From Saccharofermentans sp. (GTDB lineage Bacteria; Bacillota; Clostridia; Saccharofermentanales; Saccharofermentanaceae): a stretch of 32,000 nt of DNA. Both the position numbers and the translations under genes were made by a program. Of this stretch, positions 6,688-32,000 are shown one piece after another. The first letter of the stretch is position 1; the number at the start of each line of letters is the position of its first letter. The notes below the pieces were generated by a model. That model saw only the letters and a program-made list of their open reading frames with translations. It had not been told where the DNA came from and did no database searches. The stretch lies in assembly GCA_045598005.1 (NCBI GenBank), contig JAZLLF010000021.1, positions 19,952 through 51,951 of the forward strand, written 5' to 3'.

Positions 6688-6720
6688 GACCCCACAGGAT
6701 TTTTTCCTGCGGGGTCTTTA
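6688..6720 (+). terminator. rho-independent terminator after def
   Basis: GACCCCACAGG - attttt t loop - CCTGCGGGGTC (11-bp stem with one A:C mismatch), followed by TTTA. Confidence 0.6.
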
Positions 6721-6746
6721 GATGTTGGAAATAATTGAGATATAAT
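6717..6746 (+). promoter_or_regulatory. candidate sigma-A promoter of the large cluster (-35 TTTAGA, 18-nt spacer, -10 TATAAT)
   Basis: TATAAT at 6741-6746 and TTTAGA at 6717-6722. Downstream are RBS GGGAGG at 6766-6771 and ATG at 6780. Confidence 0.4.
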
Positions 6747-6779: not shown

Positions 6780-8435
6780 ATGGATTACAATCAGGGAACC
6801 ATTACTAGAAGACTTGAGTCAGTTCGTGAGAATCTGGGTGAAGAATTTGGAGCTTTTTGTACTCAGTTTGAGATGAATAAGAAGCTTGATAAGCTTAATC
6901 GTTCAAGAGGCACTTCTGTATATAGTGAAAATCTTGGAAATCTTATGGATCTCCTCGATGTTTTGAAGATTGATTTTGATGACAGTCGCGAGGATTATGA
7001 TTATTACGACAAGCTTGTAAGAAATATTGAATTCCCTGAACTTACTGATCTTGAAGAGAAGATGATTTATAAACTCTACAAGATCTATGAAGAGTACCCA
7101 CTCCCTGAAGAATATATGCTCCGAATTGTAAATCGTCTTTCAAAGCCAGAGGATAACTGGCAGGACGATACATTAAGACTTCGTATTCTGAAGCAGTTCA
7201 TTAAGTATGGGAATTATCTTTACGATGCTGAGGCTGGTGGTAAGGGTTTTATTAAGAAGTACGTAAAGGCAAAGATTGGAAAGATTTCTTCCAAGAATGA
7301 GCTTGAAGATATTCTTGATAATGTTGATGATGCTATCTTTGATGTTCTTTCTGGTGGAACAAAGGATCAGAAGGAATTTTCTGGTACATATGGTCTTTTG
7401 AAAATTTGTGATGATTTGGCATCAGGTCAGTTCAGAATGGGTGGTGCTACAAAGAAGAATCTTTACCTTTTTGCTATCTGCTATGGAATGACATTCTATA
7501 TTGGTAAGGATGGCGATTCACAGATTATCGATTACAAGACTGATATCGAGAAGAATCTTTTCCGTGATTACTATGTAAATAATCTCATGAGATTTTTGAC
7601 TAATTCTTATAAGGAGAACCGTAATAGCTTCGAGAAGGAGCCAAACGGTCTTGGAATTAACTATAAGAATTTTGCTGAGATGATTTATATTTACTATCTT
7701 GCAAAGCCTGACAGTGAGATGTCTCCAGCTGAGAAAATTAAGTGCGCAACAGAGATGATTAACAGAATCAAGGATAAGGCGTATAAGAGTGGTCTTGAGA
7801 AGAAGAATCCTGCAACTTTGTATCTTAAGGATATGTTCTGTGACGATATTCTTATGAAGTCATCTGAAGATTTTGAAGAGTACATCACTACTTATTATGA
7901 CTGTGATACTTACATTGTTTATAACGGTAAGAGCGGAAACAAGGTAAGTGAAATGCAGGTTTCAACAGGTCAGAATACTGCTTTCGAGTGCTTTAAGGAG
8001 CTTATTGAAGAGATTGAGGATGAAGTTTCTGTTGAAGATATTTCATATGTGTCATGGATTGAAGATTTGAAGATTGATGCTTATGAGAAATATAAGGCGA
8101 AGTATCCTGATATTGATAAAGAGAAGTTCGAAGAGTTCCTTGCTCTCATTTTTGAGATGGACAGAACTGTCGATATTAAGGAGAAAATTGAAGAGATTAA
8201 CACTTCCAAGGAAGTATCAAGAACAGCTATTGTTGTAGCTTCCTACCATCTTTTCAATTTAAGAAGAGAAGATGACGACACAAGAAGCATTGCAACTTTT
8301 ACTGAAATTTTTGATGAGTTTGCTTCTGAAGCAAACGTTGTACTTAATAATTGTGCTTACCAGCAACTTAACTGTAAGAATATTTTTGATGTGTTAATTG
8401 TATTCTCAATTTATGTAAGTCAGTACGTAGATTAA
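6780..8435 (+). CDS. hypothetical acidic protein (551 aa), first gene of the cluster
   Basis: Long ORF. ATG 6780 lies 8 nt after GGGAGG; the tracked TTG 6735 start would overlap the -10 box. D/E/K-rich, no TM segment, no motif I can name. Confidence 0.6.
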   Translation: MDYNQGTITRRLESVRENLGEEFGAFCTQFEMNKKLDKLNRSRGTSVYSENLGNLMDLLDVLKIDFDDSREDYDYYDKLVRNIEFPELTDLEEKMIYKLYKIYEEYPLPEEYMLRIVNRLSKPEDNWQDDTLRLRILKQFIKYGNYLYDAEAGGKGFIKKYVKAKIGKISSKNELEDILDNVDDAIFDVLSGGTKDQKEFSGTYGLLKICDDLASGQFRMGGATKKNLYLFAICYGMTFYIGKDGDSQIIDYKTDIEKNLFRDYYVNNLMRFLTNSYKENRNSFEKEPNGLGINYKNFAEMIYIYYLAKPDSEMSPAEKIKCATEMINRIKDKAYKSGLEKKNPATLYLKDMFCDDILMKSSEDFEEYITTYYDCDTYIVYNGKSGNKVSEMQVSTGQNTAFECFKELIEEIEDEVSVEDISYVSWIEDLKIDAYEKYKAKYPDIDKEKFEEFLALIFEMDRTVDIKEKIEEINTSKEVSRTAIVVASYHLFNLRREDDDTRSIATFTEIFDEFASEANVVLNNCAYQQLNCKNIFDVLIVFSIYVSQYVD

Positions 8436-8458: not shown

Positions 8459-9145
8459 GTGGTACACGAATTTACATTTATTGGAAAGCATCACAGAGAG
8501 AATAATATGGGTGCTCAGGATTATACCTGTTTTGAAGAAGGTCCAAGATATCTGGTAACAGTTCTTGCTGACGGTGTTTCAACGTGCCCGAATTCTTACG
8601 AGGGAGCAAAGGTCTGCTGCGAAGCTTTGAAAGCAATTTTCTTCGCGAAAGCAGAATATTTCTTTGAATTCGACGAAGAGAAAATAAAGGATCTTGCAAT
8701 GTCACATGTCCTTTATGAACTTCGAAAGTATGTTGAATTAAATGGTGGAAAACTTGAAGATTATTCAAGTACTCTTGCAGGAGTTCTTTACGACAAGAAG
8801 GAAGAGCGCTATATAACTTTAAGTGTTGGCGACAGTTTAATTATCGGCTCAGGCTTTGGTAAATGTGAGACTTTGTCCATGCCTTATGATTCAACTTCTG
8901 GCTGTCCTGTTACTACAACAAATAATGTTTTGGAAGTTACAGAAGTTAAGATTTCAGACTCAGCCAATTTTGAGTCAATTACTATTTTTACTGATGGTGC
9001 ATGGAGAGAACTCTATAATCGTAACAGCATGAAGAAGAATATTGAGATTTCTCTTATTAATGGCGATTTGAAAAATATCGAAGATTCATTAATAGAATGC
9101 GAGCCTTTTGATGACAGCAGTTTTATAACTGCCATCTTGGTATAA
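8459..9145 (+). CDS. PP2C-family Ser/Thr protein phosphatase
   Basis: PP2C motif order: GKHHRENNMGAQDY (R..N.D), VLADGVS (DG metal site), SVGDSLI (GDS), IFTDGAW, FDDSSFITAILV (terminal DD). GTG 8459 is the first possible start after an in-frame TAA; ATG 8507 is an alternative. Confidence 0.75.
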   Translation: MVHEFTFIGKHHRENNMGAQDYTCFEEGPRYLVTVLADGVSTCPNSYEGAKVCCEALKAIFFAKAEYFFEFDEEKIKDLAMSHVLYELRKYVELNGGKLEDYSSTLAGVLYDKKEERYITLSVGDSLIIGSGFGKCETLSMPYDSTSGCPVTTTNNVLEVTEVKISDSANFESITIFTDGAWRELYNRNSMKKNIEISLINGDLKNIEDSLIECEPFDDSSFITAILV

Positions 9146-9158: not shown

Positions 9159-12100
9159 ATGAAGGAGCGCACATACATTAAAAATGAGATTCTTCTTTGT
9201 AGTCTTATCGATGGTGAGAAATCACGTAAGAAGTTCCGAATAGTTAAGAAAATCGGCGATGGTGCTATGGCAGTTGCCTATGAGGCATATAGCGATGGTA
9301 CCAGTGGTTTTGGTGTGCTTCATGAGTTTTATCCAAAGGACAGTATTATTTTAACAAGAAGATCTGATAACCAGCTTGTTGTTACAGATGGTTTTGATGA
9401 AGCTATTAATAGACTTGAAAGAGATAAAGAGAAGTATGTTTCATCTTATCTGAAGCTTGCTGAAGTTATACGTAATAATCCTGATAATAATCTGTCAGTT
9501 CATCTTCCTGTTTTTGAGATTTACTATGGTTGTGATGAAGATAAAAACATAATTGGAACTACATATATCTGGACTCCTGAACAAAAACTCGAGACTTATG
9601 AGAAAGTATGTCAGGATATTCATAGACACCCAAGTTCTTCACCAGAATTTAAACTTGTATCTGCTCTTAAGGCGATTGAGTCACTTGCTGAAGCCACACT
9701 CGATCTTCATATGGCAGGATTTATCCATCGTGACATTAAGCCTTCTAATTTTGGTTTCACATTGTCTCACGATACTATCAAGACAGACAGTTTTAAACTT
9801 TTTGATATCGACAGTATGTGTCGATCAATTCAAAGACGTGTTGATTATGTTGTTGTTTCTGAAGGTTTTACTGAGCCGGAAATGAGAGCATCAATACCTC
9901 AGAGACCAAGTGTTCAGACAGATATTTATTCAATTGGAGCGACACTTTTTTATTCAATAATTATTACACCTGAAACTAAGGCAACAGACTATAGATACAG
10001 TGATGATTACTATGACAGAATTGATGAACTTGTGGCATCTTCAAGTCTTATTTCATCAAGTGAGTCTAATTCACATCCGAAGTTAAGACATATTCTTGCG
10101 AAGATTTTGAAGAAATCTCTTGCAAAAAGAAGTGCCAGATATGAGAAGTGTGAAGATTTAATCGAGGATATTAAGACAGCCATTTACTATGCTCTTCCAG
10201 GTGAGCTTTCATCAAGAAACAAGAGAGGGGTAAAGGTTATTTACGATGACGTTAAGTCTGAATTTGATAAATTCTCAATCAAGAATTCATCGATGGTTCT
10301 TATAAATCATCTTTATGAGGTTCCATTTTACAGAAGCCTTGATAAGTCAATGGAAGATATTAATATTCTTGTGGTTGGCCTTGGAAATTATGGTCAGAAG
10401 TTTATTGATATCTGCCTTCAGGCAGGTCAGATGATCGGAAAGAGAATTCGAATTACAGCGGTTTCTTCTGATGCTCTCGACAGCAGAATTTATCTTGAAG
10501 AACGTCCTGAACTTGAGAATTTCTTCAATATAGATGGCAGAAATCCAGCGCCTGATTCTTATGGTGATATTAACTTTGTAACTTATAATTTCGATCCTGA
10601 TAATTACGATGCGAATCCAAAAGCAGTAAGAAAGAATACTGAGAGTTTTGTCACTGGTTTTAAGGATACGTTTGTTTATGCTTTTATTGCTCTTGGAAAC
10701 GATGAGATTAATAGTGCTGCTTCAAGAGGAATAAACAAGGCATACGATAAACTTGGAAAAGAAATCACAATTTCTTATGTAAACGAGAAGAAGGAAGATA
10801 TAGGTCTTATTAACGACAGGAAGAATATCTTTGCTGTTAATATTAATGCGCCACTTAAGAGCTTCAGATATAACGATGAGATTGAGAGAATGGGCTTTAA
10901 TATGCATCTTCTCTGGGAAAAGAATCTCAATGTGGATTTCAGAGAAGTATATAAGGCATATAACGATTTATATAACCATACTTCATGCGTATGTGGTGTT
11001 CTGGCACTTAAATATAAGTTGTTCAGCATTGGAATCAATCTCGATGAATTAAGTTTTGAAGAAGCTTCCGAGAAGTTCCTTTCTGAAGATGTTTCAGATG
11101 AACTGATTTATCTTGAGCACAGAAGATGGGTAACTGAAAAGATTTGTGCCGGATGGTCAAAGCGTCCTGTGGAGATGGCTTTCAACGGAGCTACAAGAGA
11201 CAAGAAACTTAAAAACCATATCTGTATTGTAAAGAGCGACAGTAACCAGAACCTTAAGCGTAATTTTACTGATAAGGGGCTTCGTACCTGGGATGAGGCT
11301 ACGGATGAAGAACTTAATACTCTTGATGAGCTCGATAGAATGTCCGTTGAGCTTCATAGAGGATATGTAAAAAAAGCTAAGGCAATTGATGTGTCAGGAC
11401 TTTTGAGCGGACATTTGTATACAAAAATGTATTCTCTCATTGAGTCTGACAAAGATGCTCTTGCAGCATTTCAGGAGTGGTTTTCCTGCGTAAAGGAGAT
11501 CTGCATTGATCTTCCTGAGAATGCTGCGCGTAAAATTAAGTTATACAGAAGCCTCAAAGATGCTTTTGTTATGGCAGCGAATAATTCTTATGTAGAGTCT
11601 CTCGTTAATGAGTTTAATAAGGCAGTTGAGCCAATTCTTCTCAGCCGTGAGTATCGCGATTTCAAGCAGGATGATACGGTAATGATTATGAATACTCCGT
11701 TCATTCTTACTTTTACAGAGAAGACAACGCTTGCCATTCCATATGAGTTTAATGATAAATCTCAGGTGTTCGATAATATATCTGCACCATGTATGGTTAA
11801 TCCAAACAGAATTGTATATTTTGTTCTGATTGAGAAGAATGAAGATATTCCAAGTTTCCGCGAGACACTTAACGGAACTATCAGCTTTATGAAGAAGAAA
11901 AACATAACATCTTCCATAGATCTGTTTATCGCTTATGACAAAACAAACGGATTTAATTTAAATCGTGCTTTTGAGAAGGCAGTTATTGAAGATGGTTATG
12001 GTCTTATTAAGAGCGTAAAGAGATTCCCTTATTCTGATATTGATTCTGTTCTTACTGAAATCAGAAAGTATATTGATAAGCGTAAATCTGGCAGAAACCA

Positions 12101-13259
12101 GCTGGCAATTGAGAAGAATAATACCAAGCTTTCTGGTTTGTTCAGGGATACAGGCATTTATAGTTCATATGCTTCTTACTATTTTGATTCTTTCAATATG
12201 GTTTTTGAAGATTTAAACGGTGCAGACTTTTTGAAATATATTTCAAAGCGTCCACATTTTACTATTTCTGAAGCTTTGTCCTTCAGACGTGCATCAAATA
12301 TTAAGAGCAACCATCCGGAATTTTATAACGATTATAAAGATCTCTGGAAGATGTATAGTAAACACCGCTCCTCCTGGATTGAGCTCAACAGTATTCTTGC
12401 TTCTTATTCTGATGTTAATGATGTAATTGTAACTTTTAATCTTGATGATTATTCAGCTTCAAAGGCAGATAATTTTGCATACATTGTTCCTCAGTACTGT
12501 TCACGAAATCTTGTAAGACTTCTTGTAAAACTTAAAAGAGCCGGGGTAATTTCAAAGGAAAGCAGCGTAACCGGATATACCAGTGATTCCTGCCATGTAA
12601 ATATCGTTGGCGACATTAAGCTTAAGGCAAAATTCGATGTAATTTTTGCGAACTGCTACTGCTTTGCAATAGATAACATGCTTAACGTAAAGAAGATTTC
12701 CGATAGTAAGGTGTCAGTGATTTACGATGATCTTTCTGTAAGAAACCTCGATATTTCTTCCTGCGAAAGCAAGATCATGCTGATTCTTAAGTACCTTGAG
12801 GAGAAGAGTTATATTAACTGTCTTAATGCTGAAGATAATAAGAAAGTAAGTTTTACTTATTCCACATCAGTCATTAAGAGATTCCTTAAAGATTCTGATG
12901 CCATGCTTCAGATCTATACATACCATAGCGTTAAGGAATTAACGAGTGTGGACGATATCTTAAGCAGTTACGAACTTAAATCAAGAAGTGATGATCCTTT
13001 AAGAGAAATCGATCTTGTAATAACAAAAGGTTTCAGAATGGTATTTGTTGAGTGTAAATCCGAAGGTGTATCGGAGGAAGAGGTACTTAACAAACTGAAT
13101 ACTCTTGTTCAAAGCGTTGGTACAAACGCAACCGCAGTTCTTATTACTGATGGTAAGGTTAAGAAGGGACTAAAGAGCGATACGGTTATTATTTCGAAGA
13201 AGGACGAGATTAATAGTATCAGTAGTACACTTATGAAGATTATTAATAGTGAATACTGA
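9159..13259 (+). CDS. multidomain Ser/Thr protein kinase fused to a Rossmann-like/RyR-like module and a Card1/Can2-like CARF + PD-(D/E)xK nuclease-like module
   Basis: Hanks-type kinase motifs: G-loop IGDGAMAVAY, catalytic loop HRDIKPSN (H190-D192, nt 9726-9734), DID for DFG, TEPE for APE, DIYSIGATLF. Downstream motifs: GLGNYG and EHRRW..GW. C-terminus has EID(1285)-x12-E(1298)CK(1300). GGAGGA lies just upstream of the ATG. Confidence 0.85.
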   Translation: MKERTYIKNEILLCSLIDGEKSRKKFRIVKKIGDGAMAVAYEAYSDGTSGFGVLHEFYPKDSIILTRRSDNQLVVTDGFDEAINRLERDKEKYVSSYLKLAEVIRNNPDNNLSVHLPVFEIYYGCDEDKNIIGTTYIWTPEQKLETYEKVCQDIHRHPSSSPEFKLVSALKAIESLAEATLDLHMAGFIHRDIKPSNFGFTLSHDTIKTDSFKLFDIDSMCRSIQRRVDYVVVSEGFTEPEMRASIPQRPSVQTDIYSIGATLFYSIIITPETKATDYRYSDDYYDRIDELVASSSLISSSESNSHPKLRHILAKILKKSLAKRSARYEKCEDLIEDIKTAIYYALPGELSSRNKRGVKVIYDDVKSEFDKFSIKNSSMVLINHLYEVPFYRSLDKSMEDINILVVGLGNYGQKFIDICLQAGQMIGKRIRITAVSSDALDSRIYLEERPELENFFNIDGRNPAPDSYGDINFVTYNFDPDNYDANPKAVRKNTESFVTGFKDTFVYAFIALGNDEINSAASRGINKAYDKLGKEITISYVNEKKEDIGLINDRKNIFAVNINAPLKSFRYNDEIERMGFNMHLLWEKNLNVDFREVYKAYNDLYNHTSCVCGVLALKYKLFSIGINLDELSFEEASEKFLSEDVSDELIYLEHRRWVTEKICAGWSKRPVEMAFNGATRDKKLKNHICIVKSDSNQNLKRNFTDKGLRTWDEATDEELNTLDELDRMSVELHRGYVKKAKAIDVSGLLSGHLYTKMYSLIESDKDALAAFQEWFSCVKEICIDLPENAARKIKLYRSLKDAFVMAANNSYVESLVNEFNKAVEPILLSREYRDFKQDDTVMIMNTPFILTFTEKTTLAIPYEFNDKSQVFDNISAPCMVNPNRIVYFVLIEKNEDIPSFRETLNGTISFMKKKNITSSIDLFIAYDKTNGFNLNRAFEKAVIEDGYGLIKSVKRFPYSDIDSVLTEIRKYIDKRKSGRNQLAIEKNNTKLSGLFRDTGIYSSYASYYFDSFNMVFEDLNGADFLKYISKRPHFTISEALSFRRASNIKSNHPEFYNDYKDLWKMYSKHRSSWIELNSILASYSDVNDVIVTFNLDDYSASKADNFAYIVPQYCSRNLVRLLVKLKRAGVISKESSVTGYTSDSCHVNIVGDIKLKAKFDVIFANCYCFAIDNMLNVKKISDSKVSVIYDDLSVRNLDISSCESKIMLILKYLEEKSYINCLNAEDNKKVSFTYSTSVIKRFLKDSDAMLQIYTYHSVKELTSVDDILSSYELKSRSDDPLREIDLVITKGFRMVFVECKSEGVSEEEVLNKLNTLVQSVGTNATAVLITDGKVKKGLKSDTVIISKKDEINSISSTLMKIINSEY
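10350..11240 (+). other. domain: Rossmann-like (VVGLGNYG) + RyR-like (LEHRRWVTEKICAGW...KNHICIV) module inside the kinase gene
   Basis: By eye it aligns block by block with residues ~312-616 of the next-but-one gene: INILVVGLGNYGQ / ISVIINGLDNYGS; FIALGNDEIN / FTSLGSDTAN; YLEHRRW / RIEHDRW. Confidence 0.6.
11725..13259 (+). other. domain: DUF1887/Card1-Can2-like region (CARF-like Rossmann, wHTH-like segments, PD-(D/E)xK core)
   Basis: The C-terminal stretch QIYTYHSVKE...REIDLVITKGFRMVFVECKSEG...LNKLNTLVQSVGTNATAVLIT matches my recollection of the DUF1887 nuclease consensus (E.D-x(n)-ECK, then a conserved G and a hydrophobic strand). Confidence 0.5.
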
Positions 13260-13290: not shown

Positions 13291-13626
13291 ATGCAGGCGG
13301 ATAATATACACATGGAGAAGAATATGAATAGTAATATACTTAATAACGGTTATGAACCATTACCAGAAGATATTTCGGATGTAGTTCTTCCAAAAGAACT
13401 GGAAGAGTTAACAGAGATTATTGCAAAAAATGTTCACGAAGTATGGTCACAGGGCAGAATTGATGATGGCTGGGTTTACGGCGAAGAACGTGATACAGAA
13501 AAGAAGACAACGCCATGTCTCGTACCATATGAAGAATTATCAGAAGAAGAAAAAGATTTTGACAGAAGAACAGCGATGAACACACTGAAGTTCATTATTA
13601 AAGCAGGGTTTAAAATTACCAAGTAA
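13291..13626 (+). CDS. stand-alone RyR (ryanodine-receptor repeat, PF02026-like) domain protein
   Basis: LTEIIAKNVHEVWSQGRIDDGWVYGEERDTEKKTTPCLVPYEELSEEEKDFDRRTAMNTLKFIIKAGFKI matches the RyR-domain pattern (HE.W...GW.YG...K..P.LVPYeELse.eK..DR). Alternative start is ATG 13324, preceded by GGAG. Confidence 0.75.
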   Translation: MQADNIHMEKNMNSNILNNGYEPLPEDISDVVLPKELEELTEIIAKNVHEVWSQGRIDDGWVYGEERDTEKKTTPCLVPYEELSEEEKDFDRRTAMNTLKFIIKAGFKITK

Positions 13627-13640: not shown

Positions 13641-15491
13641 ATGTGGATTATTAGTTTTATTATTTCGTTGTTGATTATTGTTGCCGGCATATCATTTGCT
13701 GCACTTTATCGTAAAAACGATAAATGTAAATCACACTTTAATCTTACAAGTATTCTGATTTGCACTGTATTTATTTCCTCAGCATGCTTGTTTTTTCCTG
13801 TATACAGATTAAGTATCGAAGGTTCAAATATTCCTGCAATCAAGGCAGCACTTATGTCCCTTCATAATTCAATTAGACTTTTTGTCGTAGATGGTGATTT
13901 CCAGTTTTTATTTGATTTTAAAGACCAGATTACTCCATCAATCCTTCCATTTTATGAGATTCTTGTCATTATCGAGTTTATTGTAGCTCCAATCCTGACT
14001 TTCAGCTTTGTGCTTTCATTTTTTAAGGATCTTCAGGCTAATATGGATCTCTTTTTCAGTGGAAAGAGAGATGCTTATGTGTTCTCAGAACTTAATGAGC
14101 GTTCAATTCTTCTTGCAGAGGATATCTACAGAACAAAGAAGAATCCACTTATCGTTTTTACTGATGTTTTCGAGACTGAAGGTGAAGAATATTACGAGCT
14201 TTCAAAGCGCGTTAACATGATTGATGGTCTTTGTTTCCGCAAGGATATTACAAAGTTTAAGTTTAAAAAGTACAAGAATGATTCAGAGCATGAACTCATG
14301 TTCTTCCTTTGTTCTGACAACACTACTGATAACAAAGAGAGTATTGAGCAGTTCATTAAGCTTGATGAAAAGTACCGTGATTATGTAAATTGTTCACTTT
14401 ACTATTTCTCTTCAACTTCAGATAGTAATCTTGTTAACAGAACACTTGATGAGGCTTATGGAGAAGCACGTAAACTTAAGGTTTACAGAGTAAATGAATC
14501 AGTTCAGCTCGTTTATAACTACCTTTATGAATCTGGTATCAATCTTTATAAGGAAGCTTATGAAGAGAACGGTATGAAGAAGATTAGTGTAATTATTAAC
14601 GGACTTGATAATTACGGTTCTGAACTTCTCAAAGGACTTATCTGGTTCCTTCGAATGAAGGGTTACGATTATGAGATAAACTGCTTTGATTCGAATTTCG
14701 ATGCAGAAGATAAAATGAGACGTGAAATGCCTGAAGTTTTCCTTTGTAATGAGGGCAAGAATGAGCATGATCCGGACGTTCGTTACAATTTGAAGATTTA
14801 TCCTGATACTAATTTTGATTCAGTTCATTATGTAGACAGAATTAAGAGCATCTCAAATCCAACATTTGTATTTACAAGTCTTGGTTCAGATACTGCAAAC
14901 ATCGAACTTTCTACATATATTAAGAGAATAATCGACAGAGAATTCATTACACACGATAAAGAACCTGATACCTGCAGATTTGTTACAATTGTAAAGAATT
15001 CAACTGAGAAGGAACTTCTCAAACTTGTTGTTTACAAAGATGAGGAGAAGGATGGCAAGAAGATACGAAAAGAAATCAGATGCCTTCCTGAGAACTTCGA
15101 ACTTATTGGTGATTACAGCACACTTTATTCTTATAACTTTGTCACAATGAGTAAAATTGCAGCAGCAGGTCTTGAAAGACATCACATCTGGGGTGGTAAA
15201 GATCACCAGTATTACGGTAACGAATACAACTATAAATCATCCATCTCTTCTGCAATTCATATCAGACTTCGAAAGGAACTTAACATTCCTGGTGCAAACG
15301 TTAATCCAAAGGAGAGAACTCCTGAAGAGAAAGATACAATTTGCAGAATCGAGCATGACAGATGGAGTGCCTATACAAGAACAAATGGTTTTATCTATAA
15401 CAAGAAAAAATATACCAGCCTGAAGCTCCATAACTGTCTTATTCCTTTTGATGAGCTTGATGACAAGAATAAGGACAACGATAATGTTTGA
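13641..15491 (+). CDS. polytopic membrane protein with cytoplasmic Rossmann-like + RyR-like module
   Basis: Three to four N-terminal TM helices (WIISFIISLLIIVAGISFAAL, LTSILICTVFISSACLFFPVY, ILVIIEFIVAPILTFSFVLSFF). C-terminal half holds GLDNYG and IEHDRW(571-575)...NGFIY...LHNCLIPFDELDDKNK, paralogous to the kinase middle region. Confidence 0.7.
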   Translation: MWIISFIISLLIIVAGISFAALYRKNDKCKSHFNLTSILICTVFISSACLFFPVYRLSIEGSNIPAIKAALMSLHNSIRLFVVDGDFQFLFDFKDQITPSILPFYEILVIIEFIVAPILTFSFVLSFFKDLQANMDLFFSGKRDAYVFSELNERSILLAEDIYRTKKNPLIVFTDVFETEGEEYYELSKRVNMIDGLCFRKDITKFKFKKYKNDSEHELMFFLCSDNTTDNKESIEQFIKLDEKYRDYVNCSLYYFSSTSDSNLVNRTLDEAYGEARKLKVYRVNESVQLVYNYLYESGINLYKEAYEENGMKKISVIINGLDNYGSELLKGLIWFLRMKGYDYEINCFDSNFDAEDKMRREMPEVFLCNEGKNEHDPDVRYNLKIYPDTNFDSVHYVDRIKSISNPTFVFTSLGSDTANIELSTYIKRIIDREFITHDKEPDTCRFVTIVKNSTEKELLKLVVYKDEEKDGKKIRKEIRCLPENFELIGDYSTLYSYNFVTMSKIAAAGLERHHIWGGKDHQYYGNEYNYKSSISSAIHIRLRKELNIPGANVNPKERTPEEKDTICRIEHDRWSAYTRTNGFIYNKKKYTSLKLHNCLIPFDELDDKNKDNDNV

Positions 15492-17147: not shown

Positions 17148-17174
17148 GTGATATTAATTTTGGGTGAGATTTTT

Positions 17175-21541: not shown

Positions 21542-21547
21542 GTTATA

Positions 21548-24056: not shown

Positions 24057-27000
24057 ATGAACGCACCAACACTATTGATCGGTCTGGGTGGTACAGGAAG
24101 CAAGATTATTTCAAAAGTATCTGCAATGGTATCTCCAGAGGAGAGAAACAATATCTCATTTGCTGTATTTGATACAGATATTAATGAGCTACGTGTAATT
24201 CAGGAAACACATCCATTTATTAAGACAATTCAGACATCTACACGTCAGGCTGTAGGTGAGTATCTTAATATTGATACACATGCCAGAGATACATGGTTCC
24301 CAGTTAATGGAATTCTTAATGGTAAGGCTCTTTCAGAGGGAGCTGGACAGGTAAGATCTATTTCAAGACTTGCTCTTGAGACTGCAATCAGATCAGGTAA
24401 GATGGAGCCACTTCATGAGGCTGTTCAGGAGCTTTATAAGGTTGAGGAAGATAAGCAGGAGCAGGCTTTAAGAGTTGTAATTGTAAGTTCTCTTGCTGGT
24501 GGTACTGGTTCAGGACTTATTCTTCCAGTAGCTTTATATGTTAGAAATTATCTTAAGACTCACTTCCGTTTGAGCGCTAACATTACACGTGGTTTCTTTA
24601 TTCTTCCAGAAGTATTCTATGGTGTAATTAAGGGACCAACAGAGAGAAATAATCTTAAGGCAAATGCTTATGCTGCAATCAGAGAGCTTGATGCATTCCT
24701 TATGAAGAATGACGATACTCTCCACGAGAGATATAAGGATTCAGTTGCTATTCACTTCCCTAAGGTAGCTTCTGAAGGTTATGAAGAGTATGACGTAAGA
24801 CCTTATGATTTCTGCTTCCTCTTTGATGCTCAGAACGCTGAAGGTGGAAAGCTCAATTCATTTGATCAGTATTTGGATCACGCCGCTAACTGTATCTACG
24901 CTCAGTCAATTGGACCTATGAATAAGCGTAGTAACTCTTCTGAGGATAATACAATCCGTAAGCTTGCTAAGGAGCATGGCCGTAACAGATATGCTGGTGC
25001 TGGTGTATCTATGCTTGTATATCCATTTGAAGACATTAAGAAGCTCTTTGCTCTTAAGTGGGCTAAGCAGAGTGTTTCTTCTTTGTGGCTTAAGTACGAT
25101 AACCTCTATAAGGAGTACGTAAAGGACAGAGCTTCTCTTCGTGAGGAGGGTCTTTCAATTGGTGATAACCAGACACTTGCAGAGTACTATGTAAGTCAGG
25201 TTGAGTCTGATAATGCTGCTGATGTACCTTTTGCAAGAGCAATCTATGTTGCATCTGGTAACTACCGTAATGGTGTTACACGTGAGACAGATAAGTGGGA
25301 TATGTACGTTGCTGAACTTATGAATAAGATTGGTGAGGACATTTCTTCTACTGCTTCAAGCCTTGATTCACGTGCAAGAGACGTTAGATCACGTATTAAT
25401 GAGCTTGGTCAGGATAAGGACTGGTCAACATTTATTACTGTTTATAACGATATGCAGGAGTACGCGCTCCTTTCAGAGCAGTATGTAACAAATGTTTCTC
25501 AGACAATTGCACATTCACTTTTCAGAGGATCACATACAAGTGGTGCTAATAACTGCGAGCAGCCATATAAGCTTGAGTACTATATCGCTCCAGAAGGAAA
25601 GTACATGCATCCAAACGCTGCAAGATATCTCCTTATCAAGATTCTTGAGCGCATGAAGGAAACAAAGATGTCTGTAGAGCAGGGCAAGGTAAAGAGCAAG
25701 AAGTTCTTTGAGACATTCGAAAAGAATACTTTCGATGATACAAAGACAGATGCTGAGGAGACAGTTGATGATCTCGCTAGAAGAAAGAAGTCTCTTAATA
25801 CTAAGGCTGATATGACTCAGATGGCAGATGACTTCTCTAACTACCTTACAATTGTTAAAAAGTATCAGGCACAGTGTGCTCAGGATTACGTACTCATGAA
25901 GGGTATCGAATATATTGAAACACTTATCAATTCTTATGAGCAGTTCTTTATGTCTTTCGAGAGCAAGGTTGAAGGCATGGATAAGGAAATTGCAAATATT
26001 TATAAGAAGTATAGTGATACTAAGGGTACAACTGTAAGATACGTATCTGCCAGCAAGGATTGCCTTGATAAGATGTACGAAAAGAAGCCTTACACAGGTG
26101 GTGTTGTTTCTATCGATTCAAAGCTTGCACAGACAATTTATGATCAGGTTCTTGAGTATTCACTCTTAAGAGAGAAGCCAAATGCTAACAGATACTTCAA
26201 TAAGCTCTTCGATGATGGCATTATTGGATACTTCGAGGATAGCGTTATGAACAGCTACGGTGCTGAACTTGATATTGATGCTATTACTGCTTTGCAGAAC
26301 GAAGCTGATTATATTGGTGGTTTTGATGATGCTGATGATGCTGATAAGCTCATTATTCAGTATGTTAAGAAGGTAATCGAGGATACAAGAAAGCTTGCTT
26401 GTCCATTTATTGAGAGACCTCTTGGTGAGACAACAGATCCAATTAACTCATGTACATTTAATAAGTCACTTAAGCCTGATAAGGGTGATGAGTCACCTAT
26501 CTCACAGATTATCAGAAGTGAACTTCTTGATTACGGCGGAGAGGCTGATGAGGATGTACCAAGAAAGATGATTATGTTCTATTCTTCTTTCTATGGTTTG
26601 AGAGCTAATGATCTTAGTAAGTTTGCTCCACCTGAGAAGACAGAAACATATAACAGAACTGGCGGTGAATACTTCAAGGCTTACTTCGATCTTATTCAGG
26701 GAATCCACCCATCTTCACAGAAGAGTAAGGGAATTTCTCCACACTGTGATCGTTGGTGGCATATCATTACAAAGATGCCAGATCTTGATGAAGAGAATCA
26801 GGCTAAGCAGGAGTATGATATCTATTCTGCATTCTTCTGGGCTTTCTACTACAGATTTGTAAGCCTTAAGAGTGAGAATAATAAGCAGATTTATAAGTTC
26901 TCAAAGCTCCTTCTTGATATGGATGATGACACTCTTATCGTTTCTAACGGTACAGATTGTGACAAGTTCTACGAGGTTCTTGACGCTATTGCTATCTATC

Positions 27001-27515
27001 CAGAGCTTACAGCTAAGATTCTTAGTAAGGTAAATAGTGATCTTGCTGACGATATTGATGAAGGTGTATCACTTGAGGAATCTTATTTCATGACTCAGCT
27101 TGCTAACTTTGAGATTGATGAGCCACTTCTTGGTGCCAAGGAGACAAAGTCTCATTGTATCTTTGATATTCCACTTCTTATGAAGAAGTCAGCTACACCT
27201 GACATCTATTACGAAGAGGATGTTGTAAACATGCTGAAGGTTTCAATCCAGGAGATTAAGCGTTATATTTCTAACTTCTGTTCTCCAAGTGATTTACCTG
27301 TAGCTGTAAAGACAGTTATCCTTGATCAGTTCGCTAAGCATCTTGAGTCACTTAAGATTGAAGCTAAGTCAAACAAGCTTGTTTATACAGAGCCACTCTT
27401 CGAGAAGACATGTGATGTTATTTATAACGCACTTTATGAGATCGATTGTAAGAGAGATGCTCGTAAGATTTATGAGACAATGCAGAATCTTAAGAGACAG
27501 TCAGCACAGGACTAA
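24057..27515 (+). CDS. giant tubulin/FtsZ-superfamily GTPase-like protein (Pfam Tubulin_2-like, from memory)
   Basis: N-terminal LLIGLGGTGSKI (T1-like G-rich loop, nt 24081-24101), FAVFDTD (compare FtsZ NTD) and SSLAGGTGSGLILP (tubulin signature GGGTGSG-like, A147-G153, nt 24495-24515). About 900 further residues have no TM. Strong RBS AAGGAGG. Confidence 0.75.
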   Translation: MNAPTLLIGLGGTGSKIISKVSAMVSPEERNNISFAVFDTDINELRVIQETHPFIKTIQTSTRQAVGEYLNIDTHARDTWFPVNGILNGKALSEGAGQVRSISRLALETAIRSGKMEPLHEAVQELYKVEEDKQEQALRVVIVSSLAGGTGSGLILPVALYVRNYLKTHFRLSANITRGFFILPEVFYGVIKGPTERNNLKANAYAAIRELDAFLMKNDDTLHERYKDSVAIHFPKVASEGYEEYDVRPYDFCFLFDAQNAEGGKLNSFDQYLDHAANCIYAQSIGPMNKRSNSSEDNTIRKLAKEHGRNRYAGAGVSMLVYPFEDIKKLFALKWAKQSVSSLWLKYDNLYKEYVKDRASLREEGLSIGDNQTLAEYYVSQVESDNAADVPFARAIYVASGNYRNGVTRETDKWDMYVAELMNKIGEDISSTASSLDSRARDVRSRINELGQDKDWSTFITVYNDMQEYALLSEQYVTNVSQTIAHSLFRGSHTSGANNCEQPYKLEYYIAPEGKYMHPNAARYLLIKILERMKETKMSVEQGKVKSKKFFETFEKNTFDDTKTDAEETVDDLARRKKSLNTKADMTQMADDFSNYLTIVKKYQAQCAQDYVLMKGIEYIETLINSYEQFFMSFESKVEGMDKEIANIYKKYSDTKGTTVRYVSASKDCLDKMYEKKPYTGGVVSIDSKLAQTIYDQVLEYSLLREKPNANRYFNKLFDDGIIGYFEDSVMNSYGAELDIDAITALQNEADYIGGFDDADDADKLIIQYVKKVIEDTRKLACPFIERPLGETTDPINSCTFNKSLKPDKGDESPISQIIRSELLDYGGEADEDVPRKMIMFYSSFYGLRANDLSKFAPPEKTETYNRTGGEYFKAYFDLIQGIHPSSQKSKGISPHCDRWWHIITKMPDLDEENQAKQEYDIYSAFFWAFYYRFVSLKSENNKQIYKFSKLLLDMDDDTLIVSNGTDCDKFYEVLDAIAIYPELTAKILSKVNSDLADDIDEGVSLEESYFMTQLANFEIDEPLLGAKETKSHCIFDIPLLMKKSATPDIYYEEDVVNMLKVSIQEIKRYISNFCSPSDLPVAVKTVILDQFAKHLESLKIEAKSNKLVYTEPLFEKTCDVIYNALYEIDCKRDARKIYETMQNLKRQSAQD

Positions 27516-27552: not shown

Positions 27553-29511
27553 ATGTATTCTGTACTTATTCAGAATCAGAGAACAATGGATTTGTTTAAT
27601 GATTTCCAGCCATTGTTTTCTGAAGCATTAAATGATGACAGAATAGGTGTATGTAAGTGGTTTGAAAATGGAACCACTATTGACACAGCACTTCCTGAAA
27701 TTAGAGATTTAACTGATGATAAAGAGGAATGGCGTGCCATTATCGTTAATGTTGTTGACGATAATGGTGTGTCCAGTTTCTCTTCAAGTGCGATTAATCC
27801 ATTTGATTTTGACATTAATAAGCTTCCTGATGACGGAGAAGATCATGACAATGATCCCGTTATTGAAAGTCCTGTTCCGCTAATTAGACTTACACATATG
27901 CTTGGTGGTTTCCCTGAGTTTGATGTTCGTTATGAAACTAAGGTAAAGCATGAGCATGGTAAGGCTGACAGAGATATTTATGTTGTGAAGGATTGTCCTG
28001 TTCGTGAGGCAACTCATGAGAAACTTGTTCGTAAATACAGATATAGTGGTAAGGCGCCTTCTTCTATTATTCTTGTAACAGTAAGAGAAAAACTCGAAGA
28101 GAACAGACATACTCTTAGTAAGCATTGGCTTAATCATATGGAATCTGATGCAGATGAGTTCTGGAAGCGTAATATGTATCCACATATTTGCCGTTTCCTT
28201 GTTTTTGATAAAGAAGACTCAGGACCAGTTCAGAAGGATGCTGATGATTTCAGATTCTGGTCATCGGTTGCTCTTCTTGCAACAAACGACATTGATGCAG
28301 GCGTTTTGCAGGCATATCGTCTTTATAATTTGAACGCTAGAATTAATCGTTCAAATATGGAAGAGTTTTTGCAGAATTACACAGACCGACTTCGTGATGC
28401 AAAGCGTGCTTTCGAGTATCAGATTAAAAGCGATATTAAGAATATGGTTTCCAAAGAGGAGACTTTGCCAGAAGATATTGAGATTAAGGTTCCTGTAGCA
28501 ATTAAGGTTCCCAAAATTGATGATATTGAGATTAAGTCCAAGTCTCTTCCTTTTCTTGCGGATAGCAGCAATATGGATATTCGCGTATGGAATGAGAGAA
28601 CTTCAAGAGCTGAAACTAATATGGCGAAGGCTGTTAAGGAAGCAGAAAGAACACTTGATCGTACTGTAAACAGAATGAGAAGTTCACTTGAGTATGATAA
28701 AGATGCTGTTGAGCCACTTAATAAGTATCAGGAAGAGGATCTTTCTGATCTTATCAGCAAGATTTATGCCAATATCGTAGATGTTCAGGGTCAGCTTCCT
28801 TCAAAGGATATTAACGAGGATAAAGAATTAAACAGGACATCAGAAAATGTACGTGAGTTCCTTAAGTCTCGTATAACAAAATCTGCTGCCGGTTTTACAC
28901 TTAGTGTTGTTGCTGGTCTTATGGTTTTATCTTTTATTCCTGCAATTATCTATTTCTTTGTTGATAAGAGGGGTTTCCCAGAGGTAGTTGGACTTACTTT
29001 CCTTTGCTCACTTCTTTTTGTTGCTCTTTGCGCTTTTATTGTTGTTCTTATTCAGAAACTTAAGTTGAAAGAACTTTTAAAAGCATATAATGAACAACTT
29101 AAACTTAAAATCAATAAGATGATGGGTAATGCAAGTATTTACTCTGAATATATTTCAAGTATTGCATCTCATACCAGAGGCAAGACTTATCTTGAGCATT
29201 CTTCAAATATTAAAACACTTGGAGATGATGTTCATAGCACTAAATATAAGCATATTACTGCTATTAACGCTCTTCTTAACAAGGTTAAAAAGTGGAATAA
29301 CGCATACCATCTTAAGGTTGATTTTGCTGCGGCACGACCTAATTACATGATAGAAGTTGATTCTTCTGTTAAGCCATCTGAAAACAGACTTTATCAGTTT
29401 GATTTTGGTAAGACATATTCAGTTGAAATTAATGATTCAGGTATGAATATTGAGGCACCTTTTAACTTTGTAAGTAACTTAGATATTGAAAGGGAGGAAC
29501 TGTATGGATAA
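27553..29511 (+). CDS. hypothetical protein with charged, probably helical region and C-proximal TM hairpin
   Basis: RBS GGAGGTGA. Two hydrophobic helices (AAGFTLSVVAGLMVLSFIPAIIYFFV and VVGLTFLCSLLFVALCAFIVVLIQ) sit about 200 aa from the C-terminus. A charged, heptad-like stretch precedes them. No motif recognised. Confidence 0.65.
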   Translation: MYSVLIQNQRTMDLFNDFQPLFSEALNDDRIGVCKWFENGTTIDTALPEIRDLTDDKEEWRAIIVNVVDDNGVSSFSSSAINPFDFDINKLPDDGEDHDNDPVIESPVPLIRLTHMLGGFPEFDVRYETKVKHEHGKADRDIYVVKDCPVREATHEKLVRKYRYSGKAPSSIILVTVREKLEENRHTLSKHWLNHMESDADEFWKRNMYPHICRFLVFDKEDSGPVQKDADDFRFWSSVALLATNDIDAGVLQAYRLYNLNARINRSNMEEFLQNYTDRLRDAKRAFEYQIKSDIKNMVSKEETLPEDIEIKVPVAIKVPKIDDIEIKSKSLPFLADSSNMDIRVWNERTSRAETNMAKAVKEAERTLDRTVNRMRSSLEYDKDAVEPLNKYQEEDLSDLISKIYANIVDVQGQLPSKDINEDKELNRTSENVREFLKSRITKSAAGFTLSVVAGLMVLSFIPAIIYFFVDKRGFPEVVGLTFLCSLLFVALCAFIVVLIQKLKLKELLKAYNEQLKLKINKMMGNASIYSEYISSIASHTRGKTYLEHSSNIKTLGDDVHSTKYKHITAINALLNKVKKWNNAYHLKVDFAAARPNYMIEVDSSVKPSENRLYQFDFGKTYSVEINDSGMNIEAPFNFVSNLDIEREELYG

Positions 29512-32000
29512 CGCACGTTATGTGTTAACAGTTCTATTAGTTATAACGGCAATTAATCTGCTTTTAAGTTTGCTTCAGAACCTTATTAACGGAAGAAAAC
29601 TTAGAAGAGTTCGCCATGTCCCACTTATCCCGGGATCTTTTGTTCTGGCTGCTGCTGGCTGTGGATTAATGATTTATTACTATGAGAAATTATTTGCAAT
29701 TTATAATGAACTCGCAATTCTTCGAGGCATTATAAATGCAGATATTGTAGTAATTAATATTGTGCTGCTTGCAGCTTTTGTTCTTGTGAAACTAATCGTA
29801 AGACCTATAGTTGTAGCACTTTGTAAAGATGAGTCACTTCTTGAGAAGTTTTCTTATGGTTTCTACTGGTTTGATGATTTTTATGGCGAGTGGTTCCTCA
29901 TGGAGAAGTGGGTTAAATTCAGGAAGTTTTTCCTGACTGTTTATATCGCTTCAATTGTTGCTGGAAGCATTGTTATTTCAATCACAATGATTAAGGGACC
30001 ATATTCAAAGCTCTATTTCCTTTCTGTTCCTGCGGTTATGATGATCGTTCTTGGAGAGATGTATGGTTATATTAACGGCCAGACTAAGGAAGAGTTTGAG
30101 CACAGCATTATGGGTGATAACTCTGTTTCAAAGAGAATTCACAATTATTTCAAGCTACGTCCAGTATTAGAGAAAATTTTTGAAGAACCACTTATCTCTG
30201 CAAATAGTGGTAATGAATTTGTTGGAAGAGAAACACCAGTCGATCTTATGAAGGAGATGGCAGAATCTGAAGACAAGATCGATAAGGTTGTTGCTGACTT
30301 TTTCCAGATTAATGACAGATATAAGAATGCGGAAGTTGATTATTTTGATGCAACAAGAAAGATGATGCACAGACAAAATATCATCTTCAACAATCCTTTC
30401 TATAAGGATCTTGAGACATATATAACACTTCCACTTTCTGCTTCACTTCTTTCAAAGAAGAATGTTGTTGTGCTTTGTGGACGCCAGTCTGTTGCAGAAG
30501 ATGTTAAAGAGTGGCTCCATAATCTTTTGGCTGGTTACAGCCATATTGATAGTCTCTGGCGAGTTGGTTTCTTCAGCGAGCAGGATCCTTCTTTTGAGGT
30601 AGGAATTCTTACATTTACTCAGATTTATGATAAGAACGTTCTTAATGTTAATAAGGAATTCTTAAAGCAGGCGGATTTCTGTCTTATTATTGAGCCTTCA
30701 GTAATGCTTAATACAAGTCAGGTTGCATTAAGTATTCTTGGTAATGAGATGGCTACAAATGGTAAGCCAGTTTATTGCGTTTGTGACAGAAGTTCGGATG
30801 GTCTTGTTGATACATTATCCCATGTATTGAGATCAGAATTTGTAGAAGTAGTTGCTATGCCAGTTCCTCGCTGCAGTTATACAGGTATGACCTGGGATGC
30901 TGATGGTGACTTTAAGCGTCAGGAGTTGTTTGACAAGCAGACACGTTATCTCGGTAATGGTGTTGAACTTGCTGCTGTTGCTGTTCGTAATCAGGTTTCA
31001 AGTGCAAGATGGTACAGTGAATCCAAGATTCCACTTCGTGATGTTAAGTGGATTACAGGTCAGAGTTATGCAACTATCTGCCGTTATATGAACACGCCTG
31101 TACAGCAGACAAGTATCTATGACAAAATTGAATTTATTCCAAATCTTTGGAGTGCTTCACAGGAGAAAGAGCAGTTTATTATTGTTGAAGATGAGTTCTG
31201 TAATCTTTATAGCATGATGAGAGTATTCCTCTCACGTGGTACAGATCAGTCATTCATTAATGTTATGTCAGAGAATTACCTCTTACGTGACTATATGCGT
31301 TGTAATAAGCAGCTTTTCATTGCTAATCCACATGCAGTTCCATCTTTTGTTCCAGATTATGCAAAGACAGAGCGTAATACTCTCCTTAAGCTCCTTATTA
31401 TGATGTCTATGCATCAGGTTAGCGAAAGCGAAATCGCTGCCGAATTCCGCCTTGCAGGAATTGATGATTCCGATATTCCTACAAAGCTTTCTGAACTTTT
31501 ACGCACATATACATTTGCATCCGATAAGATTATCAAGCCTACTAATGAGAAAAGTGAGATTGATGAACTTGGAATCTTCACAACAAATTTTTACAGCATT
31601 TCTGATGAAGATTTTGATAGTAACTTTGAGGATACACTCAAAAACGCTTATTACGTTATTGAGGATGAAGTTGATGAGAAGAGTTATATCGATGCCAAGT
31701 TATTCAGTCATGTAACACAGACTATCCTTCCAGGCCAGTATGTGACTTATGACGGTAAGTACTACGTTGCAAAATATGTAGCACCTTCAAGTGGAGTAAT
31801 TTTGAGAAGACCTTCTGATCTCTTTGAAGGACGTAAGTACTATAGACAGATCCGTAAGTATAACATTCTCAAGGCTGCACCAGATATGACACCTGTTTTT
31901 GAAGGTGTTTATTCTGATGACAGAGTTGTGTCATGTAAGACAATTACAGATATTGAATATGCAGTATATAAGACAGATTTCTCTGTTGATACAACTGGAT
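29504..32000 (+). CDS. large polytopic membrane protein, 3'-truncated by the window edge (>832 aa)
   Basis: Absent from the ORF track because no stop is reached. I translated 29504-31999 codon by codon and found no stop. AGGGAGG at 29491-29497 lies 6 nt before the ATG, and ATG 29504 overlaps the upstream stop (ATGGATAA). N-terminal ~190 aa hold 4-5 hydrophobic helices; the rest is soluble with no motif recognised. Confidence 0.7.
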   Translation, partial: MDNARYVLTVLLVITAINLLLSLLQNLINGRKLRRVRHVPLIPGSFVLAAAGCGLMIYYYEKLFAIYNELAILRGIINADIVVINIVLLAAFVLVKLIVRPIVVALCKDESLLEKFSYGFYWFDDFYGEWFLMEKWVKFRKFFLTVYIASIVAGSIVISITMIKGPYSKLYFLSVPAVMMIVLGEMYGYINGQTKEEFEHSIMGDNSVSKRIHNYFKLRPVLEKIFEEPLISANSGNEFVGRETPVDLMKEMAESEDKIDKVVADFFQINDRYKNAEVDYFDATRKMMHRQNIIFNNPFYKDLETYITLPLSASLLSKKNVVVLCGRQSVAEDVKEWLHNLLAGYSHIDSLWRVGFFSEQDPSFEVGILTFTQIYDKNVLNVNKEFLKQADFCLIIEPSVMLNTSQVALSILGNEMATNGKPVYCVCDRSSDGLVDTLSHVLRSEFVEVVAMPVPRCSYTGMTWDADGDFKRQELFDKQTRYLGNGVELAAVAVRNQVSSARWYSESKIPLRDVKWITGQSYATICRYMNTPVQQTSIYDKIEFIPNLWSASQEKEQFIIVEDEFCNLYSMMRVFLSRGTDQSFINVMSENYLLRDYMRCNKQLFIANPHAVPSFVPDYAKTERNTLLKLLIMMSMHQVSESEIAAEFRLAGIDDSDIPTKLSELLRTYTFASDKIIKPTNEKSEIDELGIFTTNFYSISDEDFDSNFEDTLKNAYYVIEDEVDEKSYIDAKLFSHVTQTILPGQYVTYDGKYYVAKYVAPSSGVILRRPSDLFEGRKYYRQIRKYNILKAAPDMTPVFEGVYSDDRVVSCKTITDIEYAVYKTDFSVDTTG

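Follow-up and report, generated by a model that had tools for sequence, protein, structure and literature searches.

Twelve genes that all run on the + strand, from 6.7 kb to the end of a 32,000-nucleotide stretch of Saccharofermentans sp. DNA (assembly GCA_045598005.1, contig JAZLLF010000021.1, positions 19,952 to 51,951; this whole stretch is called the window hereafter), raise the question of whether they encode one system or several. A reading made earlier from the sequence alone had taken them for a single membrane-spanning system. Its description of the cluster was confirmed by the gene map, as genes g1 to g12 overlap or are separated by spacers of 5–40 bp, with the exception of gaps of 144 bp between g5 and g6 and of 237 bp between g8 and g9. 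The single system itself was not borne out, although the two functions that this reading had suggested, a conflict system or an integrin-like link between surface and cytoskeleton, may each apply to the modules taken separately. The region is quite probably a composite accessory island made of three transcription units and carrying two independently moving cassettes: module A (g1–g5), which would be a nucleotide-signal-controlled effector system, and module B (g9–g12), a Clostridial vWA/FtsZl1 cassette, with g6–g8 as additions to the latter.

The two terminator hairpins found inside the cluster sit in the two long gaps and divide it into three units, g1–g5, g6–g8 and g9–g12. A consensus promoter/terminator scan of the window performed no better than on shuffled sequences, and the G+C content is about 36% throughout. 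As the terminator hairpins coincide with the module borders, the 25-kb cluster can be broken down into module A, an insertion unique to this locus (g6–g8) and module B.

In the sampled loci, the homologues of g1–g5 co-occur tightly and those of g7–g12 do likewise, but never across the two sets, which is the very observation that the sequence-only reading had named as telling against it. A metagenome scan with an alignment of FtsZl1, the tubulin-like GTPase encoded by g10, yielded 80 loci (41–64% identity) that were typed by tblastn and clustering of open reading frames (ORFs). None of them carries a homologue of g1–g6 according to tblastn; the sequence 5' of the vWA gene extends over 4 kb or more in 36 of these loci and over 7.5 kb or more in 19. 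Genes g1–g6 are also absent from the closest FtsZl1 relative (65% identity). Conversely, the tubulin cassette was found in none of the seven further module-A loci (tblastn for five of them; called genes and precomputed Pfam matches for L171/172 and L173/174).

Table 1. Genes and signals of the island, with positions counted from the first nucleotide of the window (aa, amino acids; TM, transmembrane segment; dG, folding free energy).
Feature	Position	Strand	Basis or remark
Terminator-like hairpin of the upstream deformylase gene, left island border	6688..6716	+	dG -21.5, z -6.4, then U-run
Promoter-like site TTTAGA-18-TATAAT	6717..6746	+	10/12 consensus positions; weak evidence, overall scan no better than shuffles
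g1, 551-aa all-alpha protein	6780..8435	+	Heads module A in all 8 loci
g2, PP2C-type phosphatase	8459..9145	+	PP2C_2 PF13672, E 6e-17
g3, 1366 aa, kinase + Card1-type nuclease	9159..13259	+	Pkinase E 5e-11; Card1_endonuc
g4, stand-alone RyR (Repeat12) protein	13291..13626	+	PF02026, E 7e-33, 113 bits
g5, module A variable slot, 3-TM protein with C-terminal RyR-like domain	13641..15491	+	TM prediction; RyR matches
Terminator hairpin closing module A	15527..15581	+	dG -21.8, z -8.9, then U-run
g6, surface lipoprotein, papain-family (C1) peptidase + lectin-like domain	15636..17147	+	PF00112 E 4.5e-12; PF18560 (Lectin_like) E 6e-15
g7, vWA receptor paralogue, 35% identical to g9	17175..19319	+	Signal peptide, MIDAS DDSDS, TM 578-596, conserved cytoplasmic tail
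g8, vWA receptor paralogue, 54% identical to g9	19325..21541	+	Same layout as g9
Terminator hairpin 3' of g8	21547..21576	+	dG -18.4, z -5.5, then U-run
g9, module B gene 1, surface vWA/MIDAS protein	21779..24016	+	Beta-rich ectodomain, TM 586-604, ~140-aa conserved cytoplasmic tail
g10, module B gene 2, FtsZl1 / Tubulin_2 GTPase, long helical C-terminal part	24057..27515	+	PF13809 E 4.5e-60
g11, module B gene 3, 'B5' family	27553..29511	+	Cytoplasmic N-domain, 2 TM, C-domain
g12, module B gene 4, 'B12' family, cut by the window edge	29504..32000	+	4-5 N-terminal TM, large cytoplasmic region

Nearly all of the domains assigned by the sequence-only reading hold. Matches to PF13672 (PP2C), PF00069 (kinase), PF02026 (RyR), PF00112 (C1 peptidase) and PF13809 (tubulin-like) were obtained in Pfam, and the Card1-like domain (PF09002) was matched by the C-terminus of g3 alone: residues 1200–1366 scanned by themselves score 28.6 bits (E 1e-6, cut-off 26.4), and the whole protein scores 24.3 bits, below the cut-off. 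In the window proteins themselves, the vWA domain does not reach the Pfam thresholds (best E 0.041); it holds at the level of the family, where VWA and VWA_2 recur most often among the Pfam matches of 23 homologues (best E 1.6e-5). Transmembrane (TM) segments are predicted in g5, g7, g8, g9, g11 and g12 and a lipoprotein signal in g6. The comparison with PADLOC that the same reading had proposed returned no system beyond generic kinase models (PD-T4-6, MkoA and mad6) and CARF_PDDEXK, all matched by g3, the last of them covering the nuclease part alone; marginal matches were obtained for g2 (PDC-M21C, E 0.002) and g6 (a kinase model, E 0.002).

The first protein of module A, g1, has no match in Pfam, NCBIfam or PADLOC. 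Its gene starts at the ATG at 6780, which follows the Shine-Dalgarno sequence GGGAGG, rather than at 6735. The family counts 443 representatives of 50%-identity clusters at E<=1e-10. The AlphaFold2 model of g1 is all-alpha (pLDDT 82, pTM 0.80); Foldseek comparison of this model with PDB and BFVD gave nothing below E 1, and sequence searches of PDB and BFVD gave no match either. Its place at the head of the module was established by tblastn for six of the eight loci and, for L171–L174, by gene order, length and the lack of any Pfam match. A homologue of g2 lies between g1 and the kinase gene in every module-A locus.

The large protein g3 combines a Hanks-type kinase domain (around residues 128–345), a Rossmann-like region with a GxGxxG motif, an RyR-like motif (654–703) and a PD-(D/E)xK nuclease domain (around 1248–1340). 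Its relatives used for comparison are proteins of about 1390 aa sharing 37–51% identity with it. The HRDIKPSN motif and the metal-binding Asp of the FDI motif of the kinase are invariant in this family, and the D...ECK residues of the nuclease (D1285, E1298 and K1300) are conserved in it. The beta3 Lys of the kinase (VLKEF) is found in 12 of 15 family members; it is replaced by His55 in g3 and by Arg in its two closest relatives, which also lack the ExK motif of the nuclease. In the middle region, H654, W657 and H687 are invariant in the family and the equally invariant pattern EH-x-x-W...H-x-C aligns to the same positions of RyR domains; the match is weak (hhalign E 0.074, probability below 1%) and this RyR-like motif is thus tentative.

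Two further RyR domains follow. All members of the family of the stand-alone protein g4 keep the ligand motif H49-x-x-W52, and in g4 the ligand-contact residues H49, W52, K72, K88 and D91 are all present, Thr74 replacing the second His. Homologues of g4 are encoded by six of the eight loci (tblastn for four of them, Pfam RyR matches in L171/172). The next protein, g5, has a cytoplasmic Rossmann-like region and a C-terminus that matches RyR weakly in Pfam (E 2.5e-5) and with E 4e-9 when compared with a hidden Markov model of the g4 family, and that carries the motif EHDRW...LHNC. Its orthologues were found in L005 and L167.

Module A recurs in seven other distinct loci (L005, L167, L006, L168, L169/170, L171/172 and L173/174). 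The order g1-PP2C-kinase is constant in all of them; next come genes for a small RyR protein and/or a TM-RyR protein resembling g5, and then variable genes. A scan of genome contigs with the kinase alignment did not add any orthologue, as the HRDIKPSN motif drew in generic kinases of unrelated phyla. Genes encoding TIR or TIR-like (DUF4062) proteins directly adjoin module A in each of the five loci of a clade with 40% identity. These neighbours are, depending on the locus, a TIR-STAND-like gene, several small TIR genes, a ThsB-like TIR gene with a TPR gene, a DUF4062-TPR gene with upstream TIR and NUDIX genes, or a TIR-NB-ARC gene with two TIR genes. The TIR genes are co-directional with module A and lie immediately beside it.

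Two of these loci call for a separate remark. In L006, genes of 1152 and 662 aa that follow the RyR gene were considered as possible counterparts of g10 and g11, the lengths being equal, and were rejected as unrelated to them; they encode a TIR-STAND-like protein and an uncharacterised protein. In L171/L172 (5468-7488 and 14636-19032), NUDIX and TIR genes lie upstream of module A and a gene encoding DUF4062 (a TIR-like NADase) with TPR as well as a Peptidase_M3 gene lie downstream, and the locus adjoins a restriction-modification pair of the Eco47II type, a context that resembles a defence island.

The function of module A may be approached through these neighbours. TIR NADases are known to produce cyclic ADP-ribose (cADPR) signals. 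Phage proteins with RyR domains, RyDEP and RyR-Tad, bind or cleave the 2'/3'cADPR signals of Thoeris through residues HxxW, H/K and D, as described in two preprints of 2026, neither of which reports bacterial operons like module A (PMC13232231; 10.64898/2026.06.04.730250). Since phage RyR domains bind cADPR signals made by TIR proteins, module A may, by analogy, be a new TIR-linked signalling system, and a role in conflict or defence is favoured for it. The working of this apparently undescribed cassette could be viewed as follows. The RyR domains of g4, of the C-terminus of g5 and, tentatively, of the middle of g3 would bind a ligand of the adenine or ADP-ribose type. This ligand would control the outputs of g3, namely its PD-(D/E)xK nuclease and its kinase; the PP2C protein g2 would reverse the phosphorylation and thereby act as a reset or set a threshold, and g4 would buffer or degrade the signal. 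The slot beside the core is taken by genes of TIR or TIR-like NADases in the sibling loci and by the membrane TM-RyR protein g5 instead in the subclade of the window. A wider proposal, which must be regarded as doubtful, is that module A represents a new class of TIR-linked immunity, with host RyR proteins as receptors and as the buffer of cADPR-type signals, a kinase and nuclease effector and a PP2C reset. The subclade of the window would then have swapped TIR for a membrane-anchored RyR protein and come to lie beside an FtsZl1 cassette with an expanded receptor end, so that events at the envelope might feed into the same output.

Several data weigh against such a function. No TIR domain was detected in the proteins of the window by Pfam and PADLOC scans, and the sample of module A amounts to eight distinct loci in total. 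The TIR and DUF4062 genes next to module A could each be a defence system in its own right, gathered with it in a defence island, DUF4062 by itself constituting the Swarozyc system. The RyR-like assignment within g3 is weak, and g4 has a Thr at the position of the second ligand His of the phage proteins. Lastly, given the non-canonical beta3 residue of the g3 kinase (His55, Arg in the two closest relatives) and the loss of the nuclease motif in these relatives, the TM-RyR subclade may work differently, carry a pseudokinase or be decaying.

Module B starts with the surface vWA protein g9. The residues of its metal ion-dependent adhesion site (MIDAS; DxSxS, T and D, corresponding to D52, S54, S56, T139 and D166 in g9) are invariant or nearly so in the family, and residues of the cytoplasmic tail are also conserved in it. 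In the g10 family, the motifs GLGGTGSK and AGGTGSG are invariant. Foldseek retrieved FtsZ of Staphylococcus aureus with the N-terminal domain of the g10 model, a weak though specific match (probability 1.0, E 0.1–0.2). The third protein, g11, has no convincing match in Pfam (two sub-cutoff matches), none in PADLOC and no sequence match in PDB, and profile searches of PDB with the vWA and B5 families also found nothing. The last gene, g12, encodes about 58% of a protein of about 1430 aa, being 51–53% identical to the first 832 aa of relatives of 1429–1441 aa. The C-terminal part lies beyond the window and is known from the relatives: in L001, the full-length B12 protein carries a C-terminal CxxC...CxxC Zn-ribbon and a gluzincin motif HELTH...EG (HExxH...E).

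The order vWA>FtsZl1>B5>B12 is kept wherever the sequence reaches, in the 80 metagenome loci as well as in L001–L004 and L176. The 80 loci all contain FtsZl1, 75 a vWA gene directly 5' of it and 63 a B5 gene after it, and B12 was found in 61. Relatives at 63–65% identity consist of one vWA protein of about 700 aa, FtsZl1, a 650-aa TM protein, a 1430-aa TM protein and an FtsK_SpoIIIE-like ATPase. The genes that precede these relatives are unrelated to one another: TIR genes and a methyltransferase gene, a phage integrase gene accompanied by those of S24 and a Y-polymerase, or genes of an integrase and TetR. The FtsK_SpoIIIE-like ATPase is an optional fifth component, found in 19 of the 80 loci; it is a soluble protein of 1170 aa with an N-terminal coiled coil (L001 19729-23235) and resembles the ATPase domains of mad8 and SspH in PADLOC, the sole likeness of module B in that library. 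In many relatives, a small conserved ORF of about 90 aa lies on its 3' side (MAYADEQSYEEMI.ALQ...; L001 23264-23456, L003, L096, L112, L114, L165 and L176), for which Pfam, WXG100 included, gave no match. The window stops before the position of both genes. An apparatus resembling a type VII secretion system, made of the FtsK-like ATPase and this small helical protein, was considered and ruled out, as neither WXG100 nor any other family of that secretion system was matched. The B13 gene of the Ruminococcus lactaris-type loci was also examined as a possible vWA paralogue, which it is not. In the group of FtsZl1 relatives at about 50% identity, transglutaminase-like and TIR-beta-propeller genes were observed after B12 (L148 20845-23037; L133 19685-20926); these could belong to a distinct conflict system nearby or provide the cassette with another output. 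A collection of plasmids contained distant FtsZl1 proteins only.

Module B behaves as a mobile accessory cassette. Its surface vWA/MIDAS receptor would couple extracellular binding to an assembly of g10 at the membrane in which the TM proteins B5 and B12 also take part, and its output would be the B12 zincin protease, joined by the FtsK-like ATPase in many relatives. FtsZl1 proteins do not have a recognisable T6-T7 region, so that filament formation is uncertain (PMC2875224), and the AlphaFold2 model of g10 is poor in the GTPase domain (pLDDT 70.5, pTM 0.46). Due to the lack of the T7 loop and to this poorly modelled domain, polymerisation of g10 is conjectural.

The three genes placed between the modules are read as extending the receptor end of module B locally, in this genome only. 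Proteins g7, g8 and g9 share a common layout: the signal peptide is followed by a vWA domain with its MIDAS and by a beta-rich ectodomain, and a single TM segment leads to the conserved cytoplasmic tail. The related loci have a single vWA gene each, apart from frameshift-split copies, and neither the three paralogues nor g6 is seen in any of the approximately 85 related loci. No homologue of g6 was found in more than 80 related loci, this gene being present in this locus only; its product carries a lipobox LVSC, and the catalytic motifs GSC, H and NSW can be read from its sequence. The starts of g7 and g8 are probably at 17175 (Met10) and 19325 (Met8) rather than at the GTG at 17148 and the TTG at 19304, because Met10 and Met8 precede typical signal peptides and abolish the apparent overlap of g7 and g8.

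Three other explanations of these data have to be weighed. The twelve genes could form one membrane-spanning system in which vWA sensors act on a PP2C/kinase switch and on GTPase assembly, and these in turn on the Card1-like nuclease. The genes are indeed co-directional and tightly packed, the island starts right after a terminator, and kinases often accompany the FtsZl1 operons of other lineages (PMC2875224); nevertheless, the reciprocal absence of g1–g6 from the 80 FtsZl1 loci and of module B from the seven other module-A loci, the strong terminators between the units and the pairing of module A with TIR genes rather than vWA genes elsewhere make this very improbable. The adjacency of the two modules could still mean a functional link in this genome, despite what the sampling of other loci indicates, and this tempers their separation. 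Concerning module A taken alone, it could be a counter-defence or regulatory module borne by mobile genetic elements, whose RyR proteins would sponge host TIR signals like RyDEP and RyR-Tad instead of being defence receptors. This would fit the phage RyR-domain proteins, which are sponges or glycosidases of cADPR signals, and the location of several module-A loci on mobilisable elements (with Mob_Pre, primase, TraG and ClpP genes). However, a large kinase-nuclease effector and a PP2C protein would be superfluous for a sponge, the TIR genes are co-directional with module A and immediately adjoin it, and relatives of neither module A nor module B were found in the viral contigs of IMG/VR. A role as a sponge is thus improbable, and a nucleotide-signal-controlled effector system is preferred for module A.

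For module B, the alternative is a housekeeping-like apparatus for membrane remodelling, as proposed by Makarova and Koonin, or an integrin-like adhesion apparatus linking surface and cytoskeleton, with no part in conflict. The association of a surface vWA protein and its cytoplasmic tail with a tubulin-like GTPase and polytopic membrane partners would suit it, and so would the lack of PADLOC matches and the flanks of module B, which vary between loci, consist for the most part of housekeeping genes (aconitase, permeases, sulfite reductase, chaperonin) and show no clear signal of a defence island; these flanks also count against an accessory cassette engaged in conflict. On the other hand, the distribution of the cassette is patchy and its chromosomal contexts are unrelated, an integrase gene lies beside it in 11 of the 80 loci and in the closest relative (65%), TIR-WD40, transglutaminase and TPR genes are occasional neighbours, and related tubulin-vWA-GTPase systems were reinterpreted as conflict systems (PMC7159879). 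Such an apparatus is therefore somewhat unlikely, and module B is better viewed as a mobile accessory cassette.

The genes located upstream of the island (727-6673) look like housekeeping genes and encode a GT2 glycosyltransferase with a GtrA TM domain, a CorA Mg2+ channel, a polysaccharide deacetylase and a peptide deformylase. Two divergent genes of this region (2752-4107 on the - strand and 4275-5621 on the + strand) encode membrane proteins of about 450 aa that resemble transporters of the MATE type by eye only.

These data bear on several questions. Few branches of the tubulin/FtsZ superfamily are as divergent as FtsZl1; it was predicted in 2010, and the literature search retrieved no paper reporting experimental work on it since. 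The compact four- or five-gene cassette of gut Clostridia, which includes vWA receptors with their tails, a zincin membrane protein and often an FtsK-like ATPase, offers a tractable entry to it. That a conserved bacterial operon should unite RyR Repeat12 with a nuclease-kinase effector, and with TIR in relatives, suggests the host side of an arms race with phages, and module A suggests a possible ancestral function for a domain of animal ryanodine receptors (RyR). The g1 family adds more than 440 diverged clusters that bear no annotation.

Compared with known systems, the cluster first recalls TerY-P, to which its vWA, PP2C and kinase genes had been likened by the sequence-only reading. TerY-P is reportedly made of the vWA protein TerY, a PP2C protein and a Ser/Thr kinase and is said to be listed in the defence catalogue of Gao et al. 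2020. The PP2C and Hanks-type kinase genes do lie side by side here with vWA genes nearby; however, the former belong to module A and the latter to module B, with terminators in between. Moreover, the vWA proteins are extracytoplasmic and are encoded by another transcription unit, the eight PP2C-kinase loci have no vWA gene and the 75 vWA loci no PP2C or kinase gene. Of the PADLOC models, g1–g12 matched none but the generic kinase and CARF-nuclease ones and the marginal ones given above, whichever TerY-P models this library includes. The locus is not a member of TerY-P. Likewise, the C-terminus of g3 shares PF09002, the CARF_PDDEXK match and the D...ExK residues with the Card1/Can2 nucleases of type III CRISPR systems, but its nuclease is instead fused to a kinase and other regions; no CARF match was found in the segments of g3 scanned with Pfam, nor any CRISPR gene in the window.

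The likeness of module A to Thoeris and other systems based on TIR signals lies in its RyR domains with HxxW, in the TIR genes flanking five sibling loci and in a nuclease of the kind found in signal-activated effectors. In the window, it differs from Thoeris by having neither a ThsA-type effector with SLOG or Macro domains nor a TIR gene. The phage proteins RyDEP and RyR-Tad are free sponges, whereas the RyR domains of module A are encoded by the host or a mobile genetic element and are fused or linked to a kinase-nuclease. By analogy with these phage proteins, they are candidate sensors.

Module B can be compared with two kinds of systems. The GAP1-N2 systems, which are centred on a TRAFAC GTPase, combine tubulin and vWA proteins, have two tubulin genes in their Firmicutes versions and were read as conflict systems (Kaur et al. 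2020, eLife 9:e52696, PMC7159879), share with it a protein of the tubulin family and extracellular membrane-anchored vWA proteins. According to Pfam scans, g1–g12 include no GAP1-type P-loop GTPase, second tubulin gene or FNIII-repeat protein, and B5 and B12 are found instead. The other kind is the 'vWA/FtsZl1 operons', defined together with the FtsZl1 family (now Pfam Tubulin_2), which also comprise membrane proteins, with kinases added in some lineages, and for which a role in membrane remodelling was suggested (Makarova & Koonin 2010, Biol Direct 5:33, PMC2875224). In these operons, FtsZl1 has an N-terminal GTP-binding domain of the FtsZ/tubulin kind with a GGGTG(S/T)G loop, followed by C-terminal coiled-coil and helical regions, and the neighbouring vWA protein is often associated with the membrane. 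Module A is apparently undescribed; the link between a tubulin-like GTPase, vWA and TM proteins was already predicted in 2010 (PMC2875224). The supplement of that study gives the Clostridial order vWA-FtsZl1-B5-B12 for R. lactaris and 'Bacteroides' capillosus, and its tables describe a Clostridial subtype with B5 of about 660–680 aa and B12 of about 1420 aa with TM segments, a Zn finger and a zincin (PMC2875224). Metagenome loci of the L134 type reproduce the gene lengths of R. lactaris, two upstream genes included. Genes g9–g12 have the same order, protein sizes and families, with a Tubulin_2 GTPase showing a GGGTGSG loop and a helical C-terminus and a vWA protein with an intact MIDAS, and in all related loci the B5 and B12 positions are taken by homologues of g11 and g12. 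The differences are the three vWA paralogues found here versus one, the C1 peptidase lipoprotein g6 and, in many close relatives, the FtsK-like ATPase and small ORF after B12, which are unlisted in the 2010 tables. Taken together, module B is the Clostridial subtype of the vWA/FtsZl1 operon, with its receptor end expanded in this genome.

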